Part shown: positions 18,995-51,106 of the stretch, piece by piece
How positions within the stretch are numbered: position 1 is the stretch's first letter
How the letters are laid out: each line of letters starts with the position of its first letter
IMG/VR virus record: IMGVR_UViG_3300033069_000956
Location: 3,810 to 67,809 of that record
DNA from: a virus
Taxonomy: Duplodnaviria > Caudoviricetes
Strand: one strand, 5' to 3'
Length of the DNA stretch: 64,000 nt
Program-made: the position numbers and the translations under genes
The notes under the pieces: generated by a model
Database searches by the model: none
The model's input: the letters and a program-made list of their open reading frames with translations, nothing else
Told to the model about the DNA's origin: nothing

Positions 18995-20679
18995 TCGGCG
19001 GCCTTCATATTGCGCGATACGGTAGCTTCGGCGGCAGCGATGCGCGCGTCGGCGATGTCGTAATAGCTGGCGTCCATCTCGATGCCGATGAAGCTGAAGC
19101 CTTCCAGCACAGCGCCGCGGCCAGTGCTGCCGGAGCCCATGAACGGGTCCAGCACCGTGCCGCCTGGCGGGGTAACAAGACGGCACAAGTACCGCATGAG
19201 ATCGGTCGGCTTCACCGTCGGGTGAGTGTTCTTATAGGCGGTGGTGCGCCCTTCACTGATTGAGCTAGGCTTGCCGCTGGTGCCGTTGGCCGTGGCAAAA
19301 GTGACGACCGGTTTTTCGAGGGTCGTGAGGCCGTCGTCGCGGTCTTTCTTGGACGCCTTGGCGGCGTAAGCGAAGCGCTTACCGGAGCCCAGACCCCCAG
19401 CTTCCGTACTCTGCGGCGTGCATTTTAATGTGACAGGCGCGGCAGAGCCATCGGATCTCCAGTGGCTTATCGTAATCGTCGTGATGCCGGTCGGCTCGGT
19501 TGCTTCCGCAACGCTCGCACGGGCATTGAGTAGGAAAGGCTTTACGTGCGGCGACTCGAGCGAGCACCCGCTTTCGAAACTCAGGATCGTCGCGATAGCG
19601 GCTTCGCTTATCCGCTTTAACTCGTTCGGCGTGACGGTCGTAGAAAGACCCGTCAAATCGTTTAACTGCCTGCCCCCGTACGACGCCCAAGTTACTGCAT
19701 CGCTTAGAGCAGAACCGACGGCTCGGTTTGACAGGCTGGAAGAGTTGTCCGCAGTGTTCGCAAGCTCTGGGTTCCATTGGCCGAGTATGGCCTTTGCTCG
19801 CCAGATAAGCAACTCCCCTTCGTCGTGTTCTGCACTCTTAAAGAAGCGGGCGGCGCTGCCGCTGTCATCGCGCCGCGCGCCGGGCTTCATTTTGAAACCA
19901 ACCGTCCCGTCGTTCGGATCGTTTGCGCTGGCTTCGCCTTCCCGGCCGTTGCCGCGCTTCATATTGCCGTAGACGTTCTGGGTCTTGCGACTCTCGCTGC
20001 TGCTGCTGGCGTCGGCGATCTGGCCGCGCGCCTGCGGGAAGGCGGCGAGCACTTCGTCGCTGCCATCGTGGATGATGTTGGCGGGCCAGCGGCCCGGCTT
20101 CATCGTGCCGTGGTATTCGACGCCACCCTCTTCAGGCCGCCAGTTACCGCCGGTTTTGTCGAGGGTCGCTCCGGGTTTCAGACGCTTTACAGTGTATTCA
20201 CCGCCCTGCGCATCGTCGCCGTGGATGCGGGCGCCGTCGATGTTCAACGCCCCGACGCCGTGCTTCGCCAGATTGGCGGACACCGTTCCGATCAGCGGCT
20301 TGCGCGCGACGACGATTGGCTCGTGCGCTGGCTTGAGGGCTGTGCCCCAACCTTCCCAGTCGCCGTCTTGGTTGGAAGATTTCGGAAACCCGCTGCCGTA
20401 AATCCACATGATCTGATCACGGATTTCGAAGCCGGCGTCTTCAATGGCGACCGCCATGCGGTGGTATGTCCGACTGCCGCCGAACGACAACAGGTGCCCA
20501 CCAGGTTTGAGAACGCGCAGGACCTCTTGCCAGATGCCGATGTCCGGAACGTCGTAATCCCAATGCTTACCCATAAACGCCAACCCGTATGGCGGGTCGG
20601 TGACGACCGCGTCAATCGAACTCGCGTCAAATTCCTTGAGCACTTCGCGGCAATCGCCTTCGATGATTTCTACAGGCAT
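18991..20679 (-). CDS. DNA N6-adenine/N4-cytosine methyltransferase (beta class) with internal 157-aa insertion
   Basis: ATG 20679 after AAAAAGGAACC; TDPPY motif [19 protein letters not shown] motif I. Confidence 0.9.
19369..19839 (-). mobile_element. In-frame insertion in methylase carrying an out-of-frame HNH gene
   Basis: Removing these 471 nt restores [14 protein letters not shown]; no intein termini; HNH ORF nested in another frame. Confidence 0.75.
19379..19777 (-). CDS. Overprinted Zn-finger/HNH endonuclease (hidden in methylase)
   Basis: CEHCGQLF...RFCSKRC and [34 protein letters not shown]. Confidence 0.82.
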
Positions 20680-20725
20680 GGTGGTTCCTTTTTGTCTGCA
20701 CCCTGTAAGCCGGGCGGCGCTCATA

Positions 20726-22933
20726 TCATTTGTGGTAGTACCAGTCGGTTACTACTTCGGCGGCCAAGGGCAAGCCCTCGGTCCAGTCGAAGCCAGCAAC
20801 CATAGCGGCTTCCAGTCGTTCGGAAAAGCCACTAGCCGTTGTGGTGTCCACCTCGCAGAGCAACTCGTCGTGGGTGTGGCCAATGATCTCAGCCTCAGTT
20901 TCCTCGGCGCTCAAACGACGGATCGTTGCGCGCAGAATAGAAGCGGCGGCGGCCTGTGTACCGTTCTGCCCTAGCTTCCCTCCGTAGGTCATACTACGGC
21001 CCATGCCGTTAAGATAGGTCAATTGCGTTGTCATCTCGCCGAAGCGCTCTATCTTCTCATAGCGCGCCATTGGGTAGACCAACGGACGACCGCACGGCAG
21101 GAAAGTGATCAGCGACCCGCCGAGCAGGCCCGGATAGAAAGCGAAGGCTAATCGCCCAGCTGGGAACGTTGTCCCCGGTCGGTTCATTGCCAACCGCGCA
21201 GCTTCGTCGCACTGGTTCCAGAATACTTTAGCCCAGCGATTACGGGCTCTCCAGCCATCGACGATCAACTGCGCTTCTTCGTTGGTAACACGCACTCCGT
21301 AGCCACGTGCCATGGCACGGTAGGCCCCGACAGAACCGCCGAACTGAAGGCTAAGCCCCGAAATTTTACCGGCCTGGCGCATACCGGTATAAACAGGATC
21401 ATGCTCAGCGACACCAGCAACAATCGTTTCAACCTCGACCCCGAAGATGGCCGCGGCATTCAGAATGTAAATGTCCTCACCGTTCCGGTACGGTGTCAGG
21501 ATGGTGTCCTCGGCGGCGCGCGAGTTCGCCAGCCATGGCATCACGCGCGCTTCGATGGCGGACCAGTCGCCCCATACGAAAGTCTTGCCTTTCGGCGCTA
21601 CGAAGGTCGGGCGAATGAGGCGCGACAACACCGTGCTGATCGGCGTGCGACCTTCAGCGGCGCGCTCAACGTCTATCTCTTTCTTACTGATCGGGAGGTG
21701 CCGTATCTTGTCGATAGGCGTTCTGGCAGCGATCATATCCAGCACGTGAAGTTCGTTCGGCATAGCATCGCGCACGAGGTTGTGGACCTGGATGCCGCGC
21801 GAACTCCCGCGGCCGGTTTGCCCGGCGCCGTTGAACACGTACTGCCCAAAGATGCGCCCTTCGACTTCTTGGTGCAGCATCTTTTCGAACTTAACGGCGG
21901 ACGACGACCGACCGTACTGCAACAATTCAAGCAGCTCTATCACGTCGTCCTCCGGCGGCGTGCTAGACACGTGTATGTCCTCCAATAACTGGGTTAGCAC
22001 GACCTTGGACCCAGTAAGCCGGGTGACGTAACCCTCGTCGTCGCGCTGCTTCACCATCGTCTCGGCAAGGTCGTCCGATAGCCTATCGTACAGCCATTCG
22101 TTGATGCGCTTTGTCAGCGTCGGGCTGGTGATCGCGCCACCGGTGATCTCGGTAATGCGCTCGATCGTGTAGCGCTCTTCCTCTTCGCGGTAGAGCACCG
22201 CCGCTGCTGCTATCTCGAGGTCTACCGGCATGCCCCGATCATTTATATGCTCGTTATCCCAGTACTCCCGCCACTCAGTGGCGTCCAGGGGTCGCGTGCA
22301 CTTCCACACGTCGCGCGTCAGCTCGGTGTCCTGCACCGAGTAATCAAGATAGGTTTCCCAGACGCCGATGGCCGTGGCGATGGCCTGCTCGCGCGTGCGC
22401 CCGTTCGCCATCAGCGCGGCAATGTCCGCCGGGGAGCCGGGCAGTGGATGGGCGCGGTCGGCGAAGCGCTTCATGATCGCCTTGCCGCCAATAGTTTTTG
22501 TGCCCAATCCGAGCGCGCGACCGGCGAAGTCGAGTGCGCCGGGAAGGTTCGAGGCCAGCGCCTGGCACATGGCGTCGAGTGTCTGTTCGATCTCGATGCG
22601 CGGCCAGCCGTGGTCAGGCGTCACCACCTGCTGCCATACCTGCCGATCGAACGCCTGATTCCAGCCACAGACGTAAGTGTCGGGGCGCTTGAGCGCCTCA
22701 ACCACCTCGGCCGGGCACTCGCCGACGGCAGCCATGCGGCCCTTCACATAGGCCCACACCTCGGGCACCAGTTCACTGCTCAGGTCCGGGCACCACAGTT
22801 TGATCGGGTCGTCGTCCAGCCCCCAGCTCCACAGCAGCGCGCGCGTGCTGGTGTCGAGGACGTACTTGAGCCCGCCGGTGATGGTCAGGTCGGCTTCGGA
22901 TTGCGTTTCAAAGTCCTGGAAGATGATGGTCAC
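20726..22933 (-). CDS. polA: DNA polymerase family A (3'-5' exonuclease + polymerase)
   Basis: QDFETQS exo I, WNQAFD exo II, GDWSAIEARV motif A, RQAGKISGLSLQFG motif B, HTHDEL motif C. Confidence 0.92.
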   Translation of the reverse strand: MTIIFQDFETQSEADLTITGGLKYVLDTSTRALLWSWGLDDDPIKLWCPDLSSELVPEVWAYVKGRMAAVGECPAEVVEALKRPDTYVCGWNQAFDRQVWQQVVTPDHGWPRIEIEQTLDAMCQALASNLPGALDFAGRALGLGTKTIGGKAIMKRFADRAHPLPGSPADIAALMANGRTREQAIATAIGVWETYLDYSVQDTELTRDVWKCTRPLDATEWREYWDNEHINDRGMPVDLEIAAAAVLYREEEERYTIERITEITGGAITSPTLTKRINEWLYDRLSDDLAETMVKQRDDEGYVTRLTGSKVVLTQLLEDIHVSSTPPEDDVIELLELLQYGRSSSAVKFEKMLHQEVEGRIFGQYVFNGAGQTGRGSSRGIQVHNLVRDAMPNELHVLDMIAARTPIDKIRHLPISKKEIDVERAAEGRTPISTVLSRLIRPTFVAPKGKTFVWGDWSAIEARVMPWLANSRAAEDTILTPYRNGEDIYILNAAAIFGVEVETIVAGVAEHDPVYTGMRQAGKISGLSLQFGGSVGAYRAMARGYGVRVTNEEAQLIVDGWRARNRWAKVFWNQCDEAARLAMNRPGTTFPAGRLAFAFYPGLLGGSLITFLPCGRPLVYPMARYEKIERFGEMTTQLTYLNGMGRSMTYGGKLGQNGTQAAAASILRATIRRLSAEETEAEIIGHTHDELLCEVDTTTASGFSERLEAAMVAGFDWTEGLPLAAEVVTDWYYHK

Positions 22934-23601
22934 GGTGTCACTGCCTCGTACTTCACGTCTATGACCGGGCCGCTGTCGTACATGCGTTTCGGCAACTTCG
23001 GGTATTCTGGCACGACCGCGTACCGTAGCGCAGCGAGCATAGTTTTGCGCTGCGCTTTAGTCCCGTTCAGGAAGAAATACCGGTGCTTATCCATAGGGGG
23101 TACTGTCGCCACCCCGTTTTCTTTAGCCCATCGTTTGGGGTCTGTTATGCCCCGGTCACGTAGCGTCATCGGGTGGGTGCGCTTCCCGTCCACTAGATAG
23201 GCGTGGTCGTGCGATCGGGTGGCGCCGGTGTAAAGCCAGTTGGTCGCCTGATAGACAACGCCGGCGTGACCCCATTCGGTGTCCGCATAGGACACCACAG
23301 CGCTCGGCTGGTCCAGCATCTTCAGCGAACGTCCCACCAGTATAGACGCTGCGTTGCGCATCTCGGTCTGCACGACCAACCGCGCCAATTCATAAAGGCG
23401 AAACTCACGGTTAGCGAAAGCGTGCTTCTGCACCGGCGCGCTGGGTTGGCCGTACACCACTACGCCATCGATCATACCGTCGATAACGAGGCCAAACCCC
23501 GCCCAAAATATCGGTGCTCTGTGAGAATAGTGCTGGGCAACAATGAACTGCTCGGCAGTTTTCTTGTCAATTGGCACGACGGATACGCCTTCGGTCGACA
23601 T
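22930..23601 (-). CDS. Mom-like (GNAT-fold) DNA modification protein
   Basis: HYSH, GVVVYGQP, YELARL, VVSYAD..WGHAGVVYQATNWLYTG: Mu Mom-family pattern. Confidence 0.75.
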   Translation of the reverse strand: MSTEGVSVVPIDKKTAEQFIVAQHYSHRAPIFWAGFGLVIDGMIDGVVVYGQPSAPVQKHAFANREFRLYELARLVVQTEMRNAASILVGRSLKMLDQPSAVVSYADTEWGHAGVVYQATNWLYTGATRSHDHAYLVDGKRTHPMTLRDRGITDPKRWAKENGVATVPPMDKHRYFFLNGTKAQRKTMLAALRYAVVPEYPKLPKRMYDSGPVIDVKYEAVTP

Positions 23602-23676
23602 GTTTGTGGTTCCCTTTGCGGCAGAAAGCGAGACCGGCGGCGAACCGCCGGTCTCAATGCGCGTCAAGCCCGAGGG

Positions 23677-23979
23677 CTACTCTTCAGCGTCCGCCGGGGA
23701 GGGCGTGCCGACGGCCCGTGAGTAGGTGTCGACCAGTGCATCCTGTTCGGCCCGGACGGCGGCCTCCATGGCGCGCCTCCGGATAATGATACGCATGATC
23801 TTGGGGTCGAAGCCCTGCGTCTTGGCGATCGTGAACCGATCTCGGATGTCCGACGAGATGTCGGCCTTGTCCTCGTTCAGCTTCTCGATGGCCTCGATGT
23901 GCGCCCTCAGTTCAGCGCCGGAGTTACCCCCGGAGCCAAACGTTCGGGCGCCATCTTCATCGCCTTTGGAGCGGGCCAT
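23677..23979 (-). CDS. DUF2312/GapR-like nucleoid-associated protein
   Basis: LRAHIEAIEKLNEDKADISSDIRDRFTIAKTQGFDPKIMRIIIRRR. Confidence 0.85.
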   Translation of the reverse strand: MARSKGDEDGARTFGSGGNSGAELRAHIEAIEKLNEDKADISSDIRDRFTIAKTQGFDPKIMRIIIRRRAMEAAVRAEQDALVDTYSRAVGTPSPADAEE

Positions 23980-23982
23980 GGC

Positions 23983-24783
23983 TTAGCGCCGCTGCCGGCG
24001 GCGGGGCGTGGCGTCGTCGCCGGCCTGAGCGGCCTGCTCCGCTGCGTACTGCTCGGCGATAGCATCGTCCTCGTCAGCCGGTTCGTCATTGGGCTGAGCG
24101 GCGGCGCGGGTACGCGGGGCCGGTTCGTCCGCGGGCGTGTCTTCGACAGGCGAGCCATCATCCAGCGCGCGCCAGTCCTCGATCTTGAAGATCGGGTTGA
24201 TGATGTTGCCGTACTGCTTGTGCTTGTACTTGTCGAAGCTGAGCTTGACGATTGGCACCACCAGATCGCCCTTGTTGGCCTGGCCTTCGATGGCAGTGAT
24301 CAGGGCGCCGAACAGCTTCATCGCCCCGGTCGAGGACTGCTTGTACTCAACCGTCGTTCCGGCGTCTTCGCCGGAGATGCAGGTCAGTTCAACCGAGCGC
24401 TGGCCCTGATATTCGAGCTGCTCACTGCGGCCGGACTTCTTGTCGGGTGTGCCCATGGGCAGTTCCGGCAGGGTGTCCCTGGCGGGCAGGGGGCGCTGCA
24501 GGGCCGAGACCATGATCTCCTGCACCGGCGGTCCGCCTGCATTGGTATCCCATGCCACCCAGCCGTGCTTGAGACTGAGCGGGTTGACGGCCCACAGGCT
24601 GTCGGGCTCGACAACGGTTTCTTCCTGGCCGAACACCCAGTCGCCGTTGTTCTTGTCCATCTTGAGGTAGGCGTTAGTCCCGCCGGCAGCGGGCATGGAC
24701 ATGGCCGCGTTGTTCAGGCCCTTGGCCAGATCCGCGCGGTTGATCAGGCCGAAGCCCGTGCTACGTGTAGCAATTTCACCCAT
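23983..24783 (-). CDS. Putative single-stranded DNA-binding protein
   Basis: YLKMDKNNGDWVFGQE...HGWVAW; acidic low-complexity C-tail; located between exonuclease and PolA. Confidence 0.6.
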   Translation of the reverse strand: MGEIATRSTGFGLINRADLAKGLNNAAMSMPAAGGTNAYLKMDKNNGDWVFGQEETVVEPDSLWAVNPLSLKHGWVAWDTNAGGPPVQEIMVSALQRPLPARDTLPELPMGTPDKKSGRSEQLEYQGQRSVELTCISGEDAGTTVEYKQSSTGAMKLFGALITAIEGQANKGDLVVPIVKLSFDKYKHKQYGNIINPIFKIEDWRALDDGSPVEDTPADEPAPRTRAAAQPNDEPADEDDAIAEQYAAEQAAQAGDDATPRRRQRR

Positions 24784-24873
24784 AGTCTTTTCGTCTTTCT
24801 CTTTGCTTGGTCAGCCATTTGGCTGGAACCTCGGAAGCCGCCGAGGCGCCGGATGCCGGGTTACCCCGGAATT

Positions 24874-25245
24874 TCATTCTGCCTGATCGGTATCGGGCAT
24901 GGCTTGGAAAACGTCATCCATAACTTGGACAACGCCAAGCGAGAGGCTCAGCATGATCTCGTTATAGTGCCCGCGCAGGTAGCCTTCGAACGCCATCGCG
25001 GCGTCCACCACCTGCTTGGGTTCAGAGGCGCGCAGGTTACTGCCGTTCGCCTTCATGGTCTGGTACATGGACCCGTCCTTGACGATGGTCTCCTTGTGAT
25101 AGGAGACGGCCATCATCAGTGCCGTGGCGCGCAGCTTTTCGTCTCGGCTCAGGTCCAGGTTCATGTTGAGGATTTCCGGCACGTTCGGCAGACCTGCGGC
25201 CCCCGCAATCTGGTCCTTGATATCGTCTTCAGGTTCGTCGTTCAT
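24874..25245 (-). CDS. Hypothetical protein
   Basis: 123 aa, AAAGGAACC RBS, host-like codon use. Confidence 0.6.
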   Translation of the reverse strand: MNDEPEDDIKDQIAGAAGLPNVPEILNMNLDLSRDEKLRATALMMAVSYHKETIVKDGSMYQTMKANGSNLRASEPKQVVDAAMAFEGYLRGHYNEIMLSLSLGVVQVMDDVFQAMPDTDQAE

Positions 25246-25259
25246 TGGTTTGGTTCCTT

Positions 25260-26444
25260 TCAGCGAGCAGCCAACCGGTCGGCGAGCGTCTTGAGAGCGC
25301 CGCCGGGCAGCGCCACGGCGGGGCGCTTGTCAGTGGCGGGGGCGAGGGTGGTGCCAGAGGACCGGCTTTCAACCAGGGCCTTGGGGAGTTCATCAGGAAG
25401 CCCGGCGGCTTTCAATGCCTTTTCCGCCTGGGCGGGCGAGATGAGCTTCTTGACATGGCGGTCAGCGGCGGGCAGGCCGATCTTGGCGAAGTACTTTACC
25501 GCCTTCTCCTCGTCGGTCCAGTTGCGCGTCGCGCGCCCACTAACCAGTTTCCACCCCGGGATCGGCTGCCCCTGCTCGAGCACGGCGTGCGCCATATCCT
25601 TGAGCCGTTTGCCGAGATCAATCATGGCATCGGCATAAGGAAGCTTCTCGGCCAACTCCTCGGCCAACTCCTCGGGCGACAGCGCCAGCGTCTCGGTGGC
25701 CATGTTGTTATACAGCGGGCAACCAATCTTGCCCGAGCAGAACTTGCACCACGCGCCGAGCTTGAACGGTGCGTCTGGCTCAAGCGCCTTCTCGACGGCG
25801 TGCTTGAGATCGATGGCAAAGGCGTCAAGCTGAAGGTAAGAAGTCATCCAGCGCGTCATCGGCTCGCCCTCGTTCATGCGCGGGCTCACGATGAAAAGTT
25901 CGATCGGCGTGTCTCGGTCAAAGAACTTGTCCGTCGGGGGCGTGTGCGCGGCGGCGTAGGCGTAGTAGAGCAACTGGCTGTTCGCCTCGGCGTCAACCGG
26001 CACCCCCCGACCCAGTTTCCAATCGAGGACCACCGTACGGTCGCGGGCTCGCCCGACAATATCGACGGTCCCGAAAGCGCCGTCGATGCCCGGGAAGACA
26101 ACACGCTGCTCGTTGAAGAAGTCGATGCCGCCCAGTTCCTTATCGAGGTCATCGAAGATCGCCAGCGACGGCGCGATCGCCTCGTCATAGAACTCTTCAG
26201 TGATGACGATCTTGTTGAAAGTCAGACCGATGACGTCACGGTCGTTGCGCGTCTTGCCCTGCAGGATCATGTCAATGGCCTCGTGGCCGGCGGTACCTTC
26301 TTCGGCGAATTCGCTCGACTTGGACGGGTACTTCTCGCACAGGAGCATTGACCCCGGGCACTCGATAACCCGCTTGGCTGAGGACCCTCCGACGCTGGAG
26401 TGCGCGCGCGCAGTGTGGTCGATAACGGCTACATCCTTGGTCAC
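25260..26444 (-). CDS. DUF2800 Cas4-like/PD-(D/E)XK exonuclease
   Basis: HSSVGGSSAKRVIECPGS, FGTVDIV, VLDWKLG, NSQLLYYA, GAWCKFC. Confidence 0.85.
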   Translation of the reverse strand: MTKDVAVIDHTARAHSSVGGSSAKRVIECPGSMLLCEKYPSKSSEFAEEGTAGHEAIDMILQGKTRNDRDVIGLTFNKIVITEEFYDEAIAPSLAIFDDLDKELGGIDFFNEQRVVFPGIDGAFGTVDIVGRARDRTVVLDWKLGRGVPVDAEANSQLLYYAYAAAHTPPTDKFFDRDTPIELFIVSPRMNEGEPMTRWMTSYLQLDAFAIDLKHAVEKALEPDAPFKLGAWCKFCSGKIGCPLYNNMATETLALSPEELAEELAEKLPYADAMIDLGKRLKDMAHAVLEQGQPIPGWKLVSGRATRNWTDEEKAVKYFAKIGLPAADRHVKKLISPAQAEKALKAAGLPDELPKALVESRSSGTTLAPATDKRPAVALPGGALKTLADRLAAR

Positions 26445-26629
26445 GTCGGTTCCTCTGTGTCGTTCAGTTTGTGCAGGAGCGCCACGACCAGGTCGCGCAG
26501 CGCAGGCTGGGCGTCGGTCATGTTCATGACATCGACGATGTGCTGAGCTTCGTCGAGCGAGACCGGCCAGAAATCGCCGGTGTCGCTGTCGCGGTGGTGG
26601 ATCTCGCCGTCAATCAGGGCGTACTTCAT
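26441..26629 (-). CDS. Hypothetical protein
   Basis: 62 aa, overlapping start/stop with neighbours. Confidence 0.55.
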   Translation of the reverse strand: MKYALIDGEIHHRDSDTGDFWPVSLDEAQHIVDVMNMTDAQPALRDLVVALLHKLNDTEEPT

Positions 26630-26895
26630 GGGCGGCCCAACTGCTTGCGCGACCCGGTGACGGACAGCTTACCGTGCACGTCCGCCACCAGACTGTCTGC
26701 GTTCGCGCCGTTCAGGTCGATGTCGTCCCATGACAGGCTCGGCACAGACGTCCCGCCGCCCTTGTACAGTCGAACAAAACCGGCGCCGAAAGCGGCGTAG
26801 ACCGCCTCGCCGCGGACATAGACCTTGGCCTGCTTCCACACGCCCTTGGTGCGCAGGATAACCGCCGCCTCGTCGATGATGTGAAAACGGTCCAT
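26626..26895 (-). CDS. Hypothetical protein
   Basis: 89 aa, translationally coupled. Confidence 0.6.
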   Translation of the reverse strand: MDRFHIIDEAAVILRTKGVWKQAKVYVRGEAVYAAFGAGFVRLYKGGGTSVPSLSWDDIDLNGANADSLVADVHGKLSVTGSRKQLGRP

Positions 26896-27383
26896 TAGCG
26901 CGCGCTCCCTGCTCGTATGGTTTCGATTGCCCGGTGGGCGTAGCTCTGGTCCTGCGGACGCAGTACCTTGAGCACTTCAGCAGCGGCATGCAGCCGCTGA
27001 GTTTCGTGGTAGAGATTCTGCGACCAACGGTGCAGGCGCACGGCGATGCTGATCAGTGCATCTTCCTGTGTGGGCTTGGCCCACGCCTGGCCGCCATCGT
27101 TAGAGACCCAGCGTTTGCGTAACGTGCTCACGTTCCAGCCGAGGCCGTCAGTGCGGCGCTCACGCCAAGCATCCGGGTCTATCCATGCGCCCTTGGGCGT
27201 GACAGACAGGACCGGGTAGGCGACCAACCGAATACCGTCCACACAATTGTCAGCGTCACTCCACCAAGCACGCCAGCGATGCGTGTCTGGCGCATCTCCG
27301 AGATCGTCCTGGTTGAAGTCCTTGTATATCTTCGGGGCGATTTCGACGTGCGTGCCGTAGAGAATATCGAGGGCACCCATCAC
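26895..27383 (-). CDS. Hypothetical protein
   Basis: 162 aa, Trp-rich, coupled. Confidence 0.55.
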   Translation of the reverse strand: MMGALDILYGTHVEIAPKIYKDFNQDDLGDAPDTHRWRAWWSDADNCVDGIRLVAYPVLSVTPKGAWIDPDAWRERRTDGLGWNVSTLRKRWVSNDGGQAWAKPTQEDALISIAVRLHRWSQNLYHETQRLHAAAEVLKVLRPQDQSYAHRAIETIRAGSAR

Positions 27384-27592: not shown

Positions 27593-27594
27593 GG

Positions 27595-27825: not shown

Positions 27826-27842
27826 ATGGGCTCCTTTCGTTG

Positions 27843-27878: not shown

Positions 27879-27906
27879 CAGAATTATGGACGCGAAAGGA
27901 ACCGCC

Positions 27907-42839: not shown

Positions 42840-42859
42840 AATGGGTCACATTACTAGTG

Positions 42860-43110: not shown

Positions 43111-43183
43111 TATAGGGTCTGTGAAGGGTGGCTAGAAACGATCTTAGGTTGGCCACATTCTCGCCACGATTGCTCACCCGCGA

Positions 43184-43369
43184 TTACGAGGCGCGGCGGA
43201 GAGCTTCGGCGAGGGCTAAAGAGGGGGTGAAAGTCCAGCCGGTGACCGGTCGGCCGTCGAGGTGCGCGCGCCAGAAACAGCGGCGGCGGCGATAGTCGGC
43301 GCGGCTCGGTTCTAAGGTGTACGGGCCCGCTTTTACGACGCCGGCGATGATGCGGATCTTTGGCGGCAT
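43184..43369 (-). CDS. Hypothetical protein
   Basis: 61 aa, GAG RBS. Confidence 0.4.
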   Translation of the reverse strand: MPPKIRIIAGVVKAGPYTLEPSRADYRRRRCFWRAHLDGRPVTGWTFTPSLALAEALRRAS

Positions 43370-43474
43370 GCTCGGATTGCTCCATTAATTTTGGGCGGTC
43401 GGATTGCCCCATGAAAAGGCGGCGCCTATCAAGGGCCAGGGCACACGGCGGTGCACTGGCCCCGGTTGACGTCG

Positions 43475-43708
43475 TTACGGCTTCGGCATGCGGTAACCGT
43501 GAGCGGGGTGCTTCTCCGGTGCGGTCTGGCCCCGGTTGAGTTCGTCGGCTCGGCGTCTAGCGCTTTCGTGGGAAGAGAAGCGCACGATATTGCCGCGGTT
43601 GTCGACAAGCTCGTAATGCCCCCGGATGCTCTCAGGGTCGGGGTAGTATACGACGCGCCAACGGCGCGCACCTTTCAAGCCGCTAGCCGGTGCGTAAATG
43701 CCGGTCAT
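43475..43708 (-). CDS. Hypothetical protein
   Basis: 77 aa, ATGA coupling. Confidence 0.5.
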   Translation of the reverse strand: MTGIYAPASGLKGARRWRVVYYPDPESIRGHYELVDNRGNIVRFSSHESARRRADELNRGQTAPEKHPAHGYRMPKP

Positions 43709-43968
43709 GCGTCGAACCCGCTATCCAACAGGCCATCATCATCCAGGGCCATGCCGGCGTCGGTTGCAGCCAGCAGCACGGCGACAAGGTCGCTAGCGCG
43801 GCGCTGCAGCCCACGGTCAGCAGGGAAACGGGCCAGGCGCGCGGCCAAGTGCCTTGCGCGGCGTCCCAGCGGCCCGTTGGGCGCGTCCAAGGCGTGGGAG
43901 AGGGAGAGCAGCAGGGCGGCGCTGGAAGGGACGTGGGCGCGGCTCTGGCTGTGGTTGGTGGCGGGCAT
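43705..43968 (-). CDS. Hypothetical protein
   Basis: ATG 43968 after AAAAGGAACC. Confidence 0.5.
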   Translation of the reverse strand: MPATNHSQSRAHVPSSAALLLSLSHALDAPNGPLGRRARHLAARLARFPADRGLQRRASDLVAVLLAATDAGMALDDDGLLDSGFDA

Positions 43969-44067
43969 GGTGTGGTTCCTTTTGGGTTGAGGTGCAGCGG
44001 TATGGCTGCGGGGTCTGGCCTGAGCGCCAGTCAAGGCCAAGGCGGTCAGCCTTGGCCCGGTTGGGGC

Positions 44068-44232
44068 TCAGCGCAGGCTGTAGGCGCAGGTGTCGGTTGA
44101 GAGGTGCTCGGTGCAAGCGGTCATGGCGTCCCGGTCAGCGCCGATCAGCACGGCGGCGCAAATGGCCAGGGTCAGCAGGGCGGCGGTCAGGTAGATCAGG
44201 CGCAAGGTGTCTTTAGGGCTGCGGTAGGTCAT
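44068..44232 (-). CDS. Small membrane protein (54 aa, missed by ORF track)
   Basis: MTYRSPKDTLRLIYLTAALLTLAICAAVLIG...; AAAGGAG RBS. Confidence 0.55.
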   Translation of the reverse strand: MTYRSPKDTLRLIYLTAALLTLAICAAVLIGADRDAMTACTEHLSTDTCAYSLR

Positions 44233-44316
44233 GGGTTGGGCTCCTTTCGGCGGTCAGGCTCGGGATTGAACGCTGATCAAGTGCCAGCCTTGGCGGCTGG
44301 CACCGGTTAGGGTTCG

Positions 44317-44535
44317 TCACATCCCGGTCATGGCAGCGCGAACGGCGGATTTGCTATAGGGCGCGCCGTCAGGCGTTTTCGTCGAGCCAACCAAGGCCAG
44401 AAAATCGTTCACAGCAGCAGCGCGGTTCTTGGCGACGCTGACGCATTCGCGTGCCAAGTTATGCAGCCCTTCGTCATTGTTGATCCACAGCGCGACGTTC
44501 CAGTGGTTGTAGTTCTTGTGGCCGTTGTAGCTCAT
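44317..44535 (-). CDS. Conserved-type early phage protein
   Basis: MSYNGHKNYNHWNVALWINNDEGL motif. Confidence 0.65.
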   Translation of the reverse strand: MSYNGHKNYNHWNVALWINNDEGLHNLARECVSVAKNRAAAVNDFLALVGSTKTPDGAPYSKSAVRAAMTGM

Positions 44536-44587
44536 TTGTCGGTTTCCTTTTGAGTACCGGTTGTGGTCGGGCGCGATATGCGACGGG

Positions 44588-44944
44588 TCAGGCGTAGATT
44601 TTACCGTCATCTCCGATGTAGAGATCGACGTCGCCGAACGCGTGTGCTGCGTCGCTGAGCTTGTCGCCAGCAGGACCATAGCCCCGATCCCAAAAGCCGG
44701 CGCCATGGCCGCAACGGGTCAACCAGAAGTCGTGCCCGTGCTGTTCATCGCTCGCGCCCGCCTCAGTCATAAGCGCGGCGTTCGCGTCATAGAACGCGTC
44801 ACAATCGGCGCGCATGGCGGCCAGGGTATCCGGCGCGATGTCGGTTTCGTCGAAGCGCTTATCAAGCGGCTCGCCGTCATCATCGGAGGTGGACCAAAGG
44901 GCGGCTATAACGTAGCAGTCGAAAAAGATGTCAGGGGCGGTCAT
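44588..44944 (-). CDS. Acidic early phage protein
   Basis: GHDFWLTRCGHGAGFWDRG motif; Asp-rich. Confidence 0.7.
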   Translation of the reverse strand: MTAPDIFFDCYVIAALWSTSDDDGEPLDKRFDETDIAPDTLAAMRADCDAFYDANAALMTEAGASDEQHGHDFWLTRCGHGAGFWDRGYGPAGDKLSDAAHAFGDVDLYIGDDGKIYA

Positions 44945-44980
44945 GTTGGTTTGTCCTGTTGTGTCGGTTGTGAAAGCTGA

Positions 44981-45241
44981 CTAGGCGCGTTTGCTGTCGG
45001 TCCAGTTGTACTGTGTGCCGTCCGGGCCAATGATGAACGCCGCATGGTATGCGCCGCGCGAATGTTTGCGGATGGCGCTTGCGAGTGTCCGGTGTGCGGC
45101 TTTCAGGGTCCGGTGCGATCCGCACAGTTCAGCACGCTTATTGATCCGGTCGTAAGCCTTGATATAGACCGCGAAGCGATCAGGCACGACATGGGCGCCG
45201 ATTTCGGCAAGCCAGTATGGGTTGAGATAGCAGGTTGGCAT
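44981..45241 (-). CDS. Hypothetical early protein
   Basis: 86 aa, AAAGGAACC RBS, first gene after leftward promoter. Confidence 0.55.
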   Translation of the reverse strand: MPTCYLNPYWLAEIGAHVVPDRFAVYIKAYDRINKRAELCGSHRTLKAAHRTLASAIRKHSRGAYHAAFIIGPDGTQYNWTDSKRA

Positions 45242-45273
45242 GGCGCGGTTCCTTTGTGTTACGTCTAAGGCCT

Positions 45274-45302
45274 ATCAACCATGGTAATGGATGTTATGTC
45301 AA
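45274..45302 (-). promoter_or_regulatory. Leftward (early) promoter candidate
   Basis: TTGACA (45302-45297), 17 bp, TG-preceded weak -10; at the strand switch. Confidence 0.45.
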
Positions 45303-45409
45303 GCGTCTATTTCTCAGACGATAGCCAACTCGTCGCAAAGCCGCATGCTACAAGGGCACTGCGCGCGGTTTAGCGCGTTTATTTTGTTGACCTATGTTTG
45401 AGGGCGCGA

Positions 45410-45988
45410 ATGGATCGGCCGGTACGGCGCACAACCCTGCAGGAACTGGACGAATCAGACGGTTTGCAAGGGCTTACGTCTAAACAGTACGCCTTCGCGG
45501 TGGCCTGCTTTTCCGGGCTCAACGATACAGACGCCTACCGTAAAGTTTACGACTGCCAAGGTATGACGGACACGTCCATACATGGCGCGGCTGCGCTCTT
45601 GTCCAAGCACCCGTTAGTTAACGCTAAACTAAAAGAACTAAGACTTAAAGTAGATAGCCAAACAACTCTTGCTCCATACTTAACAAGAGAATTGGTTATT
45701 AACGGAATACTAGGCCTCGCGACCAACTCTGACAAGGACTCAGTAAGATTGGCCGCTTATATTGCGCTCGGCAAAACCGTCGGCATCGATCTATTTAGGG
45801 AGGTGCACGTGACAGAAAAAATTACCCGCACACCCGAAGATGTTGACAAAGAATTGCTCAACCACATTAACAAACTCAAACCAATACTTGAGAGCACGGC
45901 CCGCGATGTCACGCCAGACAAGGGGGGTGTTGCCTCCGAACAATCGGGGGGTACTCGGCCCGATCGTCGGCGCAAGCCTGGCACGTGA
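45410..45988 (+). CDS. Terminase small subunit-like protein
   Basis: LTSKQYAFAVACFSGLNDTDAYRKVY HTH...VRLAAYIALGKTVGIDLF; lower GC. Confidence 0.7.
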   Translation: MDRPVRRTTLQELDESDGLQGLTSKQYAFAVACFSGLNDTDAYRKVYDCQGMTDTSIHGAAALLSKHPLVNAKLKELRLKVDSQTTLAPYLTRELVINGILGLATNSDKDSVRLAAYIALGKTVGIDLFREVHVTEKITRTPEDVDKELLNHINKLKPILESTARDVTPDKGGVASEQSGGTRPDRRRKPGT

Positions 45989-46194
45989 ACGGCTGCGCTC
46001 GGTTGCCTTGTGGTGACGGGCTTGGCTGTGGTCGGCTGTCAGGCTGAAGGCGGTTAGGTGTGAGCTGTCAGGTGCAAGGCTGACCTTTTGCGCCGGTTCC
46101 GGACCGGCGAGGGGGTGGCAGGTAGGGGAGGGACCTATAGGCTGGTTACCTCCTGCCTGTTCGATAATCATGCCTTGCAGCTCGCTCGATGCCA

Positions 46195-46325
46195 GAAAAT
46201 ATAGAAAAATCAAACGCCAAACCGCAACGAACCCCAAAAAATTTTCAGCAAAAATCTAAACGCCAAACCGGCTGGACGCTGACACCGCCCGGGCGGTAAG
46301 CTGAAAGCCTGAAAACTGAAACATC
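46195..46325. repeat. A-tract region with direct repeats
   Basis: AAACGCCAAACCG at 46212 and 46258; CTGAAA x3 near 46302-46322; several A5-6 tracts. Confidence 0.6.
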
Positions 46326-46356
46326 CAACCACCAGACCAAAAGGAACCCACCCCCG

Positions 46357-46599
46357 ATGAACATCCCCCGCCTGACCCGTGCCGAACTCCGCCGCGTCGA
46401 AGCGGTGCACGCCGCAGCCACGGCCTTTGCCAGCGGTCTTTATGAGACACAGGCCGAACTGTGGTCCCTTGCCGTGTTCTTCGAGCGGTTCATCGAGACC
46501 GGCGCCGAAGGCACGCTCGCCGACTTCGGGCCTCTGGACGACGATGAAGACCATGACGCCCCCGGCGCCAAGATCCTGCACATGGTGCCGCGCCCGTGA
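46357..46599 (+). CDS. Hypothetical protein
   Basis: 80 aa, AAAAGGAACC RBS. Confidence 0.6.
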   Translation: MNIPRLTRAELRRVEAVHAAATAFASGLYETQAELWSLAVFFERFIETGAEGTLADFGPLDDDEDHDAPGAKILHMVPRP

Positions 46600-46826
46600 C
46601 CGAAACCACCATCCAGCTCGACATCAAGACCCGCGCCATCCGCTCCGGTGACCGCTGGGCCGTGCAGCGGCTGAAACCGAACGGTGACTGGGACATGATC
46701 GCCAACTGGGCCGGCGGCCGACGGTCACTTGTGCACTGGTGCGAGCGCAATGACGTGCACCCGAGCCGCGCGGCCGAAGCACAGCTGGCCACCCTGCCGG
46801 AATCGCACGGGTTCCGCGACCGATGA
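46596..46826 (+). CDS. Hypothetical protein
   Basis: GTGA coupling, 76 aa. Confidence 0.55.
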   Translation: MTETTIQLDIKTRAIRSGDRWAVQRLKPNGDWDMIANWAGGRRSLVHWCERNDVHPSRAAEAQLATLPESHGFRDR

Positions 46827-46972
46827 GCCAGCAAGCCACCGCCCTGTTTGTCATCGTTGTCATCCTGCTCGGTATCGCCGGGCCCATCGCCGAGCGGTTC
46901 ATCCCGCCTCCCGCCAACCCCGGCGTGCATCGCGGCTCTGGTCCGGATGAAGGTGTCTTGCCGTACCAGTGA
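46823..46972 (+). CDS. Small membrane protein (49 aa, missed by ORF track)
   Basis: MSQQATALFVIVVILLGIAGPIAE...; ATGA coupling. Confidence 0.5.
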   Translation: MSQQATALFVIVVILLGIAGPIAERFIPPPANPGVHRGSGPDEGVLPYQ

Positions 46973-47029
46973 CCGCGTGCTAGGTATCAAAGCCATAATT
47001 CTGGTTGCTACCGCCGTCGCAAGGACACC

Positions 47030-47323
47030 ATGCCGCACGTCATCGACCCTACGTTACGCCCGCTCCACGCCAAGATATACGAGGCCATTCGCGAGCATTG
47101 GCTGACCAGCGGCCAGGGTCCAAGCAAGCTGGAACTGATGCGCGCCTGTGGCGTTAGCATGACCACGGTGATCCAGGCGACCAATGAGTTGCGTCGGCGC
47201 GGCTTCGTGCTGGCGCCGAAATTTTCTGTTCGCGGCATCAAGCCGACCGACATGGAGCGCACCGTCTCGACCAAACCGCTCGACCCGTGGGCCGAGCTCG
47301 ACGACGCCCCGCAACGCTACTGA
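47030..47323 (+). CDS. LexA-DNA-binding-domain-like winged HTH protein
   Basis: KIYEAIREHWLTSGQGPSKLELMRACGVSMTTV.....ELRRRGF. Confidence 0.7.
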   Translation: MPHVIDPTLRPLHAKIYEAIREHWLTSGQGPSKLELMRACGVSMTTVIQATNELRRRGFVLAPKFSVRGIKPTDMERTVSTKPLDPWAELDDAPQRY

Positions 47324-47340
47324 TCCCGAAAGGACGCCCT

Positions 47341-47817
47341 ATGCCCATTACACCTGACAAGATCCGCCATAACGCCTTCAGCGAGAACCTGAAGACGGAC
47401 TTCATTGCTGTCGATGCCGGCGGTAATATCCTGACCCGGGCCTCGACCGAGGCGGCGGCACGGCACGCAGCCCCCGACGCCGACGCGATCTTCACCGGCA
47501 AGGACCTGACCCACGGCCACAAGGCGCGCCCCGAACAGGCGAGCCACGATGACGCCCTGGCCAAGGTCGTCAAGCAGGTCGACCCGGCCGTGCTCGAGGA
47601 TTACAAGGTGCCTGAGACCCCGGCGGCCGAGACCGTCGTGCCGCCCGCGATCACGCCGGCTGCGCTCCCCGACGCGCCTGCACCGACGGAAACCGTACCG
47701 GCCGCGCATTTCCCGGCGCCGGCCGAACAGCCGGAAACCGGCACCTTCGACCACGATGGTGACGGCAAGCCCGGCGGGTCGCGCCCGAAGGGTAACCGCC
47801 AGCGCAAGCCGGCGTAA
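47341..47817 (+). CDS. Pro/Ala-rich hypothetical protein
   Basis: ATG 47341 after AAAGGA; C-terminal DHDGDGKPGGS motif. Confidence 0.6.
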   Translation: MPITPDKIRHNAFSENLKTDFIAVDAGGNILTRASTEAAARHAAPDADAIFTGKDLTHGHKARPEQASHDDALAKVVKQVDPAVLEDYKVPETPAAETVVPPAITPAALPDAPAPTETVPAAHFPAPAEQPETGTFDHDGDGKPGGSRPKGNRQRKPA

Positions 47818-47879
47818 CAGACGACCGACTTTTCTTGTGCCCGGGTTCACCCCGGGCACATGCACATCAGGGACCGATA

Positions 47880-48434
47880 ATGACCGAATACCGTTACCGC
47901 TGGATGCGGGTGGCGGGGCCAAAGGGCCCACCGACCAAACACCCCGCCGCGCAGCATGACCGTCGACCATCGCGGTACGCTGTAGAGTACCATAACCGCC
48001 GGAAAAAGAAGGGTTGGGAACTGGTTCCCGCCGAAGAATACCCCATGCCGGACCCCGGTTATGCCGGGCTCGCGCTTATGCGTATCCCCGAAGCCAAGGC
48101 GGCAAAACTTGACGCCAAGATCTTCGCCGCAACACAACACGAGTTGCACGGCAGGGGGTCACCCGCAGCGCATTGGCTGCGCGGCCAGACCGAAGCCAGC
48201 CCCCGGTTCGTGGAAAACGCGGCGCAACACCGGCCGCTCACCCCCGAGACCATCGCGGCGCTGCCGGAAATCATACCGGACGACATGTGCGAAAGTGTCC
48301 AGGCGTACATCGAGGACATCATGGTCAACACGACATGGGACGCTGACGTGCTGGACAAGATCAACGCGCTCCGGGCGCGGATGAAACGCAGGCTGTACAG
48401 CGTGACGGCGACCGGCGCATTGCAGATCGAGTAG
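47880..48434 (+). CDS. Hypothetical protein
   Basis: ATG 47880 after AGGGA. Confidence 0.5.
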   Translation: MTEYRYRWMRVAGPKGPPTKHPAAQHDRRPSRYAVEYHNRRKKKGWELVPAEEYPMPDPGYAGLALMRIPEAKAAKLDAKIFAATQHELHGRGSPAAHWLRGQTEASPRFVENAAQHRPLTPETIAALPEIIPDDMCESVQAYIEDIMVNTTWDADVLDKINALRARMKRRLYSVTATGALQIE

Positions 48435-48457
48435 GCGGCAAGGTATAGCATTACCAG

Positions 48458-51106
48458 ATGATCTCAGACGCAGACCTCAGACAGCTCGAACGGCAATTGC
48501 CCAACCTGGACCCGGAGCACAAGCGCCGGGTGCTAGAGCTTCTGGAAGAGCGCGATCGCGTGCGCCAACTTCAAGAAGCGCGCGACCATTTCTTGCCCTT
48601 CGTGAAGATGATGTGGCCCGAGTTTATCCCCGGCGCGCATCATACCATCATGGCGGAGGCGTTTGAAAAGATCGCCAGCGGTGAGCTAAAGCGCCTGATC
48701 ATCAATATGCCGCCTCGTTTTACCAAGAGCGAACTATCCAGTTGGCTGCTACCCGCATGGCTGATCGGTAAGCGCCCAACCAGCAAGGTTATCCAGGCAT
48801 CAAACACCGAAGCACTGGCCTCTGGGTTTGGCCGTAAGGTTCGCAACCTGATCAGCGGCGAGGGCGGCGACACGGAACAGACCGATCATCCGTTCAGCCA
48901 AGTGTTCCCCGATGTATGGCTGGCAAAGGATAGCCAGGCCGCGGCCGGGTGGCATACGAACCGTGGCGGGGAATATTTCGCCATCGGTGTCAATGGTAAA
49001 GTGACCGGAAAAGGCGCGAATTGCGCATATTTCTCCTGCAAGTGCCTGACTAAGCGGGGCTATATTCTCATCGCCGACGTGCGTGTCGGCGACGAGGTAC
49101 TCGGATATGACCATCGAACAGAAACACCTACGTGGACAACCGTCCGTGCAATCAGCACGCAACGAAAGCCGGAAATCCTCAATGTCTCCGGATTTGTATG
49201 CACCCCCGAACACCGAGTATATACCCGGCGGGGTTATCGACGGGCGCTGGCAGCCCGACATGATAAGAGCGACCTGCTCACGCTGCGAGAAGAGCTTTAT
49301 CCGGGCGGCGAAGGAGTACCGGGCGCACTTCAAGAAGGCTGGCGTCCGAGCGCAGAAGACGTATTGTTCAGACGCGTGTCGGAGGAACCCCGCGACGTTC
49401 ACCTGCCCCCAATGTGGGGGCTGGAAAGCGCAGATGGCGGTCACCTGCAAGCCCTGCTACCTGAAGGACAAGCACGTGCATCTGGCGTGCAAGAACTGCT
49501 CAAAAGAGTTCAAGCGCCCAAAGTCCATGCAAGACAAGAGCGATCGGCTGGCTGGCTTCAGTGGCAACCATTTCTGCACCCGGAACTGCTATCTGGAGTA
49601 CTACGCGGCGAACCCGAAACCTTCGACTGCAGTGGCCACCGGCGCGTGCAAAATATGCAGCGAACCAGTTCTGAGAAAGGGCGGGAAGTATTGCTCTATG
49701 AAATGCTATTCGGAGCGAGCCAAGGTTCGAGACGCGCCTTACACGGGAGCGTGGAATCAAGAGCGGGCGCGGACCAAGAAGCGCTTCAATGGGCAGTGCG
49801 CGGTATGCGATCGGACAATGGACCGCGTGCAGGTGCATCATATCGACCACGACTCGACGAACCATACCGCGGTGAATTTGGTGCTGCTATGCGAGCCGTG
49901 CCACGGGTTTTATCATCAACGCGCGTCGGAGACAGTGCGAGCCATGTTGAAGGTGCACTTCACGGCCCTGGCCACTGGGTCGTAGACCTCCAGACGGATA
50001 GCGAGAACTTCTTCTGCGAAGGAGTTCTCGTCCACAACTGCGCGATAATCGACGACGCGCATTCCGAGCAGGAAGCCAAACAGGCGGAGTCAAACCCCGC
50101 CGTCTACGATACTGTTTGGGAATGGTACTCATCCGGCGTTCGTCAGCGTTTACAGCCCGGCGGGGCCATAGTCATCCCGATGACACGCTGGAGCAAAAAG
50201 GACCTGACAGGCCGACTGGTAAAACAGATGCAGGACGCCACGGGGCTCGCCGACAAATGGGAGGTGATATCCTTCCCGGCGATCCTCGACGAAGGTGAGC
50301 CGACGGAACGGTCCATGTGGCCAGGGTTCTGGCCCTTGGAAGAACTTCAGCGGACGCGCGCCGCGCTCCCGGTTGCCAAGTGGTCCGCACAGTACCTTCA
50401 GAACCCGGTCTCCGAGCAGGCCGCTATTCTCAAGCGCGAGTACTGGCGGCGTTGGGGGGATGACGACAAGGAACGTTGCCCCGGGCCCATGCACGCTGCC
50501 GCGTGGCAGAACGGCGACCCTCCGGCCTGCGATTACATCATTGGCAGTTGGGACTGCGCGTCGACAAAGAATGAGCGTAGCCATCCAAGCGCCTATACGT
50601 TGTGGGGGGTGTTCAAGGCTGAAGACCCTGATACCGGCAAGACGGTCAACAACATCATCCTGCTTTCGTCCTTCACCGCCCGCATGGAATTCCCCGAGCT
50701 CAAGAAACGCGCCAGGGAGTTTTACGACGAGGATAACCCAGACACGCTGTTGATCGAAAACAAGGCTGCCGGCATCCAGCTGTTGCAGGAGTTCCGCGCC
50801 ATGGGCATACCGGCGGAAGATTTCTCCGGGTCTAGTCGAGGCACAAAATCTTTGCCGAACGATAAGATCGCGCGCGCCAACATGGTCGTTGACATCTTCG
50901 CGTCCAAATACGTCTGGGCCCCTAATCGGCGCTTCGCCGACGTCGTGATCGAGGAGTGCGCCAGCTTCCCTGCGGGGGACACAGACGACCTCGTGGACAG
51001 CACGGTACAAGCGATGATACGTTTCCGGCAGGGCGGTTTCATCCGCACCGCCAATGATGAACCCGAGGAAGAGCCCGTGCGCAGGCACCGCAAGAGGTAC
51101 TACTGA
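48458..51106 (+). CDS. terL: Terminase large subunit with intein
   Basis: IINMPPRFTKS Walker A, IIDDAH Walker B, MTRWSKKDL, nuclease WDCA / IENKAAG / DDLVDSTVQA. Confidence 0.93.
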   Translation: MISDADLRQLERQLPNLDPEHKRRVLELLEERDRVRQLQEARDHFLPFVKMMWPEFIPGAHHTIMAEAFEKIASGELKRLIINMPPRFTKSELSSWLLPAWLIGKRPTSKVIQASNTEALASGFGRKVRNLISGEGGDTEQTDHPFSQVFPDVWLAKDSQAAAGWHTNRGGEYFAIGVNGKVTGKGANCAYFSCKCLTKRGYILIADVRVGDEVLGYDHRTETPTWTTVRAISTQRKPEILNVSGFVCTPEHRVYTRRGYRRALAARHDKSDLLTLREELYPGGEGVPGALQEGWRPSAEDVLFRRVSEEPRDVHLPPMWGLESADGGHLQALLPEGQARASGVQELLKRVQAPKVHARQERSAGWLQWQPFLHPELLSGVLRGEPETFDCSGHRRVQNMQRTSSEKGREVLLYEMLFGASQGSRRALHGSVESRAGADQEALQWAVRGMRSDNGPRAGASYRPRLDEPYRGEFGAAMRAVPRVLSSTRVGDSASHVEGALHGPGHWVVDLQTDSENFFCEGVLVHNCAIIDDAHSEQEAKQAESNPAVYDTVWEWYSSGVRQRLQPGGAIVIPMTRWSKKDLTGRLVKQMQDATGLADKWEVISFPAILDEGEPTERSMWPGFWPLEELQRTRAALPVAKWSAQYLQNPVSEQAAILKREYWRRWGDDDKERCPGPMHAAAWQNGDPPACDYIIGSWDCASTKNERSHPSAYTLWGVFKAEDPDTGKTVNNIILLSSFTARMEFPELKKRAREFYDEDNPDTLLIENKAAGIQLLQEFRAMGIPAEDFSGSSRGTKSLPNDKIARANMVVDIFASKYVWAPNRRFADVVIEECASFPAGDTDDLVDSTVQAMIRFRQGGFIRTANDEPEEEPVRRHRKRYY
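49022..50038 (+). mobile_element. Intein (339 aa) in TerL, no in-frame endonuclease
   Basis: Block A CAYFSCKCLTKRG...DVRVGDEV, block B TPEHRV, blocks F/G VVDLQTDSENFFCEGVLVHN, +1 Cys; splicing restores TGKGAN-CAIIDD. Confidence 0.92.
49260..49985 (+). CDS. Overprinted multi-Zn-finger HNH endonuclease in +1 frame of the intein
   Basis: CSRC..YCSDAC, CPQC..CKPC, CKNC..FCTRNC, CKIC..YCSMKC, then CAVC...VHHIDHDSTNHTAVNLVLLCEPCH. Confidence 0.88.
   Translation: MIRATCSRCEKSFIRAAKEYRAHFKKAGVRAQKTYCSDACRRNPATFTCPQCGGWKAQMAVTCKPCYLKDKHVHLACKNCSKEFKRPKSMQDKSDRLAGFSGNHFCTRNCYLEYYAANPKPSTAVATGACKICSEPVLRKGGKYCSMKCYSERAKVRDAPYTGAWNQERARTKKRFNGQCAVCDRTMDRVQVHHIDHDSTNHTAVNLVLLCEPCHGFYHQRASETVRAMLKVHFTALATGS

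Follow-up and report, generated by a model that had tools for sequence, protein, structure and literature searches.

Can a homing endonuclease gene settle inside an essential or useful phage gene, on the same strand and in a shifted reading frame, while the frame of its host stays open? One phage genome raises this question twice. The window, by which we mean the whole stretch of DNA analysed here, comprises 64,000 nucleotides (nt; ~62% guanine plus cytosine (GC)) and makes up most of the 67.8-kb IMG/VR virus record IMGVR_UViG_3300033069_000956 (positions 3,810 to 67,809; Duplodnaviria, Caudoviricetes); the phage originates from wastewater, and no close match to it was found among deposited phage genomes. 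A 132-amino-acid (aa) open reading frame (ORF) with HNH motifs lies wholly within a DNA methyltransferase (methylase) ORF, and a 300-aa one lies wholly within the ORF for the large terminase subunit (TerL), where it sits inside an intein. Both hidden HNH genes are real and maintained by selection, and we judge it likely that both are HNH homing endonuclease genes of the free-standing type, placed on the strand of their host in a shifted frame, with the host frame kept open.

Two HNH genes nested in other genes

The features in question are as follows.

18991-20724, minus strand: DNA methyltransferase gene, 577 aa, beta-class N6/N4 type (PF01555, E 2.6e-32; phrog_67, E 8e-78)
19369-19839, minus strand: in-frame insert at methylase site 2, 471 nt or 157 codons, delimited by comparison of filled and empty alleles
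19379-19777, minus strand: hidden HNH gene, probable homing endonuclease, 132 aa, ATG start, TAA stop, methylase frame +2
48458-51106, plus strand: TerL gene, 882-aa precursor (phrog_38, E 1.4e-80; Terminase_6C)
48458-49021 and 50039-51106, plus strand: terminase exteins
49022-50038, plus strand: class-1 intein, 339 aa, Cys1 to Asn339, with the +1 Cys at 50039-50041
49022-49285, 49286-49921 and 49922-50038, plus strand: intein N-lobe, unstructured read-through linker and intein C-lobe
49083-49985, plus strand: hidden HNH ORF, probable homing endonuclease, 300 aa, intein frame +1

The original prediction, made from the sequence letters, had read the same motifs in both nested ORFs, a CxxC...(F/Y)CSxxC finger followed by CxxC...HH...LCxxCH, and had placed the ORFs +1 relative to the intein and +2 relative to the methylase; motifs and offsets are both as described. 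The 132-aa and 300-aa products (small and large HNH, respectively) both match the PHROG HNH family phrog_1271 (E 3.4e-6 and E 1.7e-22). The small HNH also matches phrog_2340 (E 4.8e-13), and the large HNH clears the Pfam HNH cut-off (PF01844, 22.0 bits versus 21.4). Only in the HNH core are the two alike, at 30% identity across 70 aa (pairwise E 2e-4). Endo VII turns up for the large HNH only as a remote PDB sequence match (E 0.007), and a PDB profile search with the small HNH returned only a Cas5-HNH at E 0.056.

Host frames stay open beyond chance

Off-frame stop codons occur at a rate of ~0.028 per codon in 40 confident genes of this genome. Synonymous-codon resampling of the window allele leads one to expect ~8 stops in the TerL frame across the HNH, where there is none (P = 1.5e-4); the third frame has 8-9. 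The methylase frame is likewise open across its HNH, with a P of 0.07-0.14 that, for the window allele alone, is not significant. For the methylase, relatives were therefore needed. In 13 diverged methylase alleles, every host frame is open; the per-allele chance values range from 0.0005 to 0.28 and, since the alleles are kin, are not independent and cannot be multiplied. The lowest value, 0.0005, belongs to a methylase allele of 44% GC, and those of alleles with 44-49% GC lie between 0.0005 and 0.004. Third positions differ at 52% of sites among the methylase-HNH alleles. The overprinting of both HNH ORFs exceeds chance.

Long spurious ORFs abound in this genome of 62% GC, as exemplified by the portal gene, and might suggest that the nested ORFs are chance products of GC-rich DNA or, alternatively, that assembly frameshifts have disfigured an ordinary in-frame HNH intein. 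However, profile hidden Markov model matches, conserved residues and the recurrence of the same offset in independent contigs, from different studies and at 40-69% aa identity, make an artefact of either kind extremely improbable, and assembly error is in practice ruled out because independent alleles repeat the same arrangement. The run in the portal gene spans 314 stop-free codons in the +2 frame (window 52434-53375, plus strand); it and a 176-codon off-frame run were set aside as chance, given no family match and a gene with 86% GC at third codon positions (GC3). The GC3 of the large HNH in its own frame is 0.73.

The methylase insert

The insert lies between ...AARFF and YAAKAS... of the methylase, and it opens with residues that repeat, in degenerate form, the motif downstream of the site. 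A CGCTTC direct repeat permits an alternative placement at 19378-19848, in which the insert ends with TAAG (19381-19378), a tetranucleotide that contains the HNH stop codon. All 35 methylase relatives retrieved with the N-terminal half have an empty site, their two halves abutting as ...AARFF/YCAKAS..., whereas filled alleles have ~155 residues between AARFF and the downstream motif. The nearest methylase relative, L108 (72% identity), has an empty site. On the methylase tree, presence of the HNH takes 8 changes, compared with 8.9 for shuffled labels, which indicates a disjunct distribution; this test is biased and rough, because filled alleles were gathered by HNH similarity and empty ones by methylase similarity, and because the tree is a quick one of insert-trimmed methylases. 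Sequencing runs from two wastewater metagenomes contain close relatives with the filled allele, and a few short contigs in X1 and X4 match the window up to 19841 and continue with an empty-type junction, a weak hint that filled and empty forms may share a sample.

Two further observations concern the methylase gene itself. Its ORF opens at the ATG at 20724, with homologues aligning from about residue 17 and AAAGGA preceding the ATG at 20679, which is probably the true start. A metagenome contig (X2) joins 19005 to 20677 and so skips the entire gene; it may stem from a close relative of the phage without any methylase.

In a scan of viral contigs, full-length relatives of the small HNH (53-95% identity) turned up at 18 loci. 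All 18 relatives sit inside a methylase gene, with the methylase frame always one step ahead of the HNH frame. Across the HNH, 19 of 19 sequences are free of host-frame stops, compared with 0-18 stops in the third frame, and the host ORFs extend over 500-1000 codons. In a codon alignment of 13 distinct alleles, variability of the small HNH at codon positions 1, 2 and 3 is 0.32, 0.28 and 0.52, and mean aa identity reaches 62% when read in the HNH frame, compared with 38% in the methylase frame and 37% in the unused frame. This pattern of variability and identity points to purifying selection on the small HNH and to a host-frame peptide that is selected only against stops. Twenty-nine residues of the small HNH are invariant, including every Cys pair and the HH motif, and an AlphaFold2 (AF2) model with a pLDDT (predicted local distance difference test) score of 84.5 has a Zn-ribbon hairpin at its N-terminus, followed by two helices and, at the C-terminus, a beta-beta-alpha HNH core. 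A start codon precedes the first CxxC by 2-9 codons in every allele, with a strong Shine–Dalgarno (SD) sequence in several. A tblastn search of 50,697 phage records with the small HNH returned only short free-standing 'endonuclease' genes.

The two HNH genes of this phage could also be passengers that were once mobile and are now inactive, persisting only since precise deletion is rare and read-through peptides are harmless. Homing life cycles are established to include long inactive phases (discussed in bioRxiv 10.1101/2025.01.02.630785), and the SD sequence of the window's methylase HNH is weak. However, both nested ORFs are intact, with all metal-binding and catalytic residues conserved, and the third-position pattern reflects purifying selection across clades. 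In addition, a 95% identical copy of the small HNH, in the closest relative of the window's methylase element (L007), resides in a methylase whose halves are just 58-84% identical. Together with the hint that empty alleles may share the sample, these features render inactivity unlikely.

Phages commonly carry group I introns with HNH ORFs, and the methylase insert might accordingly be a self-splicing intron whose HNH ORF leaves the host frame open only incidentally; the duplicated sequence at its 5′ end resembles an intron-like feature discussed for the ShiLan domain (see below). Against this, no Rfam intron model matches the methylase or terminase insert at the gathering score or at E <= 1, and the HNH ORF fills nearly all of the insert, leaving ~70 nt for a ribozyme. 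Moreover, all 19 diverged alleles keep the host frame open, among them those of 44-49% GC with their chance values of 0.0005-0.004, and selection that avoids stops would be pointless if the RNA were spliced. An intron is thus disfavoured to the point of being very improbable. A family search of the methylase found no Hint family match either.

The terminase intein

The terminase intein is inserted immediately before a Walker-B-like IIDD motif. Of 15 terminase relatives with C-exteins 65-76% identical to that of the window, 13 are contiguous where the window has its 339-codon insert. L090 carries the same insert, with the HNH likewise in +1. An ordinary in-frame LAGLIDADG intein occupies another site (~residue 99) in L089 (L089:1664-2605), so that the terminase family has been invaded at two or more sites. 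Searching with the HNH protein led to contigs L138, L139-141, L142-144 and L145, all with a nested terminase HNH, in the order N-extein, intein N-lobe, HNH in +1, intein C-lobe and C-extein, and with the terminase frame open over 877-968 codons. All six distinct terminase alleles lack host-frame stops, compared with 8-11 stops in the third frame. Public gene calls for L138-L145 consist of the nested HNH and a truncated 287-342-aa 'Terminase_6C' piece, with the N-extein uncalled; in line with the warning about single-frame annotation, such elements are mishandled by automatic calling, which splits the terminase into an HNH and a truncated C-terminal remnant.

The large HNH is composed of four CxxC...CxxC finger units and a C-terminal HNH core (~49797-49919). 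In the core, aa identity among terminase alleles is 54.5% in the HNH frame, compared with 33.6% in the host frame and 34.2% in the unused frame, and variability by codon position is 0.33, 0.33 and 0.54. Where the ORF overlaps the intein N-lobe, it is the intein frame that is constrained (64% versus 40%). Cys1, the block-B T..H, the C-terminal HN and the +1 Cys are invariant across six intein alleles. AF2 models the host-frame intein with confidence (pLDDT ~80) at residues 1-88 and 301-340, whereas residues 89-300 score a pLDDT of ~30 and lack secondary structure. This model matches Hint domains and inteins at Z ~15, with 29 chains reaching Z >= 8 and the next unrelated fold Z 3, and a family search found no match in the central host-frame region.

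In all six alleles, the codons for the intein's GYDH contain an ATG in the +1 frame (window 49107). Most have GAGG or AGGA 7-10 nt upstream of it, contributed by the VGDEV codons (in the window, GAGG at 9 nt), and in three a +1 stop just before the ATG sets the HNH start; the ATG at 49107 is probably the start of the large HNH. Neither tblastn with the large HNH (E <= 1e-5) nor a nucleotide search with the terminase found a match in the 50,697 phage records. That an HNH came to ride on an empty terminase intein, as the original prediction suggested, is plausible. No HNH-free mini-intein alleles were found at this site, and no longer proteins holding the large HNH in frame, although the latter is weak evidence.

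Terminase-assisting HNH proteins exist, and structurally the small HNH comes closest to the terminase-associated GVE2 HNH (Z 4.0). The HNHs might hence have been recruited for the benefit of the phage, as an aid to terminase cutting or for competitor exclusion, instead of being selfish; cutting the empty alleles of co-infecting relatives would indeed also exclude competitors. Yet 13 of the 15 close terminase relatives, and all 35 methylase relatives sampled, do without the elements, which are therefore not needed for packaging or methylation. Their distribution is also site-specific, as homing predicts. We therefore regard recruitment as quite improbable.

A model for overprinted homing genes

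In the reading that we favour, namely homing genes hidden in open host frames, the ribosome would read straight through both elements because selection removes host-frame stop codons. The methylase would most likely keep the 157 extra residues, unspliced, as a loop that it tolerates between two conserved motifs. The HNH in the terminase would take the place of the usual intein endonuclease domain, and read-through would produce a 212-residue disordered linker between intact splicing lobes, which would leave with the intein by protein splicing and so restore the essential ATPase. Each HNH would be produced by internal initiation on the host mRNA, in the case of the terminase from the ATG and SD-like GAGG encoded within the intein's conserved codons. 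The HNH may then cut insert-free alleles of co-infecting relatives, the repair of which would copy the element in (homing). Expression, cleavage specificity, homing, protein splicing and methylase activity in the presence of the loop are all predictions of this scheme; for homing, the empty sites, patchy distribution and purifying selection would constitute indirect support.

Several observations weigh against it. The best structural matches of the small HNH, mostly HNH nucleases, are weak (Z <= 4), and a Foldseek search with its model gave none at E <= 0.001 (all E > 0.2). A promoter scan upstream of both hidden ORFs found no promoter-like site beyond chance, and none of the RNA sequencing runs listed contains the phage. 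The weak SD sequence of the window's methylase HNH, the kinship of the methylase alleles and the bias of the patchiness test belong on the same side.

More tentatively, the terminase element may be no recent accident but a co-evolved intein/HNH dual-coding unit, in which the HNH start and its ribosome-binding element, placed in conserved block-A codons, tie HNH synthesis to translation of the late terminase mRNA, and an intermediate toward intein endonuclease domains; on present grounds we consider this doubtful.

Other hidden and free-standing nucleases

Related methylases harbor hidden HNH ORFs in stop-free inserts at further sites, namely at GSGFPKS in L010 (+2), L012 (+1) and L019 (+1) and at a third site in L023 (+2). 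These are mostly of the HNH_3 type (E 4e-9 to 8e-17).

L010:2975-3547: hidden ORF, +2
L012:3049-3567: hidden ORF, +1
L019:2635-3426: hidden ORF, +1
L023:325-759: hidden ORF, +2

Several related methylase genes contain two hidden HNHs at once. A second HNH ORF (+1) lies further upstream in L007 (L007:3061-3708), where the methylase frame has stops, and this insertion seems to have split or broken the methylase gene. In the site-1 insert of L010 (L010:2574-3515), the methylase frame encodes an HTH_31 domain (E 3.7e-10) upstream of the out-of-frame HNH_3, so part of that element may be expressed as a methylase domain.

The hidden HNHs at these further sites imply that several HNH lineages use overprinting, in both offsets. 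More distant relatives of the small HNH, at 62 loci, are never nested, which restricts nesting to particular lineages at particular sites; a scan of bacterial species genomes found no nested relative, its only finds being distant free-standing HNHs, for the most part in Alphaproteobacteria. The original prediction of a general strategy is therefore upheld in so far as HNH genes recur in useful genes with the host frame kept, and not in its attribution to a single subfamily: the two HNHs of the window share 30% identity over 70 aa, and others are HNH_3-type. Since the HNHs are only remotely related, the additional ones are of another type and the distant relatives are not nested, the pattern is one of convergence by several site-tied lineages.

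The window also contains free-standing nucleases. At 57384-58277 (plus strand), between the major capsid and phosphoadenosine phosphosulfate (PAPS)-reductase-like genes, lies a free-standing 297-aa endonuclease with a C-terminal Endonuclease VII domain (PF02945, E 1.8e-19). Its N-terminal CxxC fingers match the N-terminal part of phrog_1271, the family of both hidden HNHs, which suggests that DNA-binding modules are common to different nuclease cores. At 13833-14339 (plus strand), a fourth homing-type gene, a free-standing HNH_3-like ORF (phrog_1872, E 2.8e-30), directly follows a gene for a 2898-aa protein and is itself followed, at 14346-14528 (plus strand), by a diverged second copy of the last ~60 codons of that gene; 13833-14528 is thus a further example in which part of the target is duplicated next to a nuclease gene.

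Comparison with known systems

In phage Aeh1, insertion of mobE reportedly splits nrdA into two polypeptides, whereas the host frames of the window would be read through as a single chain. Like the genes described here, mobE in nrdA is a free-standing HNH gene within a host gene, with both products made, as is predicted for the window (Gibb and Edgell 2007, as cited in bioRxiv 10.1101/2025.01.02.630785).

The basic phenomenon was published in 2025 by the Gogarten laboratory (PMC11855218; bioRxiv 10.1101/2025.01.02.630785). The ShiLan domain is a stop-free 202-aa insert in the mycobacteriophage methylase gp65 whose third frame conceals a Zn-finger HNH of 195 aa; its start copies downstream residues, the stop lies within its last four bases, its distribution is disjunct and it lacks signatures of an intron or an intein (Arsenault, Gosselin and Gogarten, Genes 2025, PMC11855218). 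A ShiLan-type arrangement is also annotated in phage Applejack gp54/gp55 (PMC12613952). The window methylase belongs to the ShiLan/Applejack family, its N- and C-terminal cores being 63% and 59% identical to those of Applejack gp54, and its insert shares with ShiLan the stop-free host frame, the Zn-finger HNH in +2, the start copied from downstream, the lack of an intein or intron signature and the disjunct distribution; in the alternative placement, the HNH stop likewise falls among the insert's final four bases.

However, the insertion sites differ, the window insert following ARFF at about residue 296 and ShiLan lying at GSGFPKS, at about residue 116. The GSGFPKS site is empty in the window methylase, as is site 2 in Applejack. 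The window element is also smaller (insert 157 versus 202 aa; HNH 132 versus 195 aa), and its HNH starts with an ATG ~60 nt into the insert, compared with a GTG at 18 nt in ShiLan. No similarity to the ShiLan HNH is detectable in the small HNH (Applejack gp55; pairwise E 0.06), whereas the terminase HNH remotely resembles the ShiLan HNH (pairwise E 7e-8). Unlike ShiLan, the methylase element of the window occurs in environmental wastewater contigs, with no close relative among the 50,697 deposited phage records.

For the terminase element, the closest precedent is provided by actinophage inteins, some of them in terminases, in which the nuclease lies on the opposite strand or in another frame (Gosselin, Arsenault and Gogarten, bioRxiv 10.1101/2025.01.02.630785). 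As in these non-canonical inteins, an intact Hint domain with a foldless center is combined with a same-strand, out-of-frame His-Me-finger nuclease in a terminase host for which intein-free alleles exist. In the same-strand case of 2025, the nuclease is Endo VII-like, has its core at the N-terminus and lies in frame 3, whereas here a PF01844 HNH with a C-terminal core is found in frame 2 (+1), and, unlike in the 2025 inteins, the start codon and SD-like element lie within the intein block-A codons. What is new here is the second methylase insertion site, the +1 HNH, not Endo VII-like, in a terminase intein, and the occurrence in phages without a close deposited match.

Significance

A phenomenon that had been published only for actinobacteriophages is thus extended to uncultivated wastewater phages. 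One genome displays two ways in which an overprinted homing gene would spare its host, a tolerated loop and removal with an intein, and the allele comparisons provide quantitative evidence that selection on the host frame acts only against stop codons. The mis-split terminase calls matter for phage annotation and for counts of homing endonucleases. If the terminase element were indeed a co-evolved dual-coding unit, such units would be living intermediates between a free-standing nuclease and an intein endonuclease domain, as in a 'splicing first' origin, and, taken with the three or more hidden-HNH sites of a single methylase family, this would mean that phage annotation systematically lacks a large class of homing genes.

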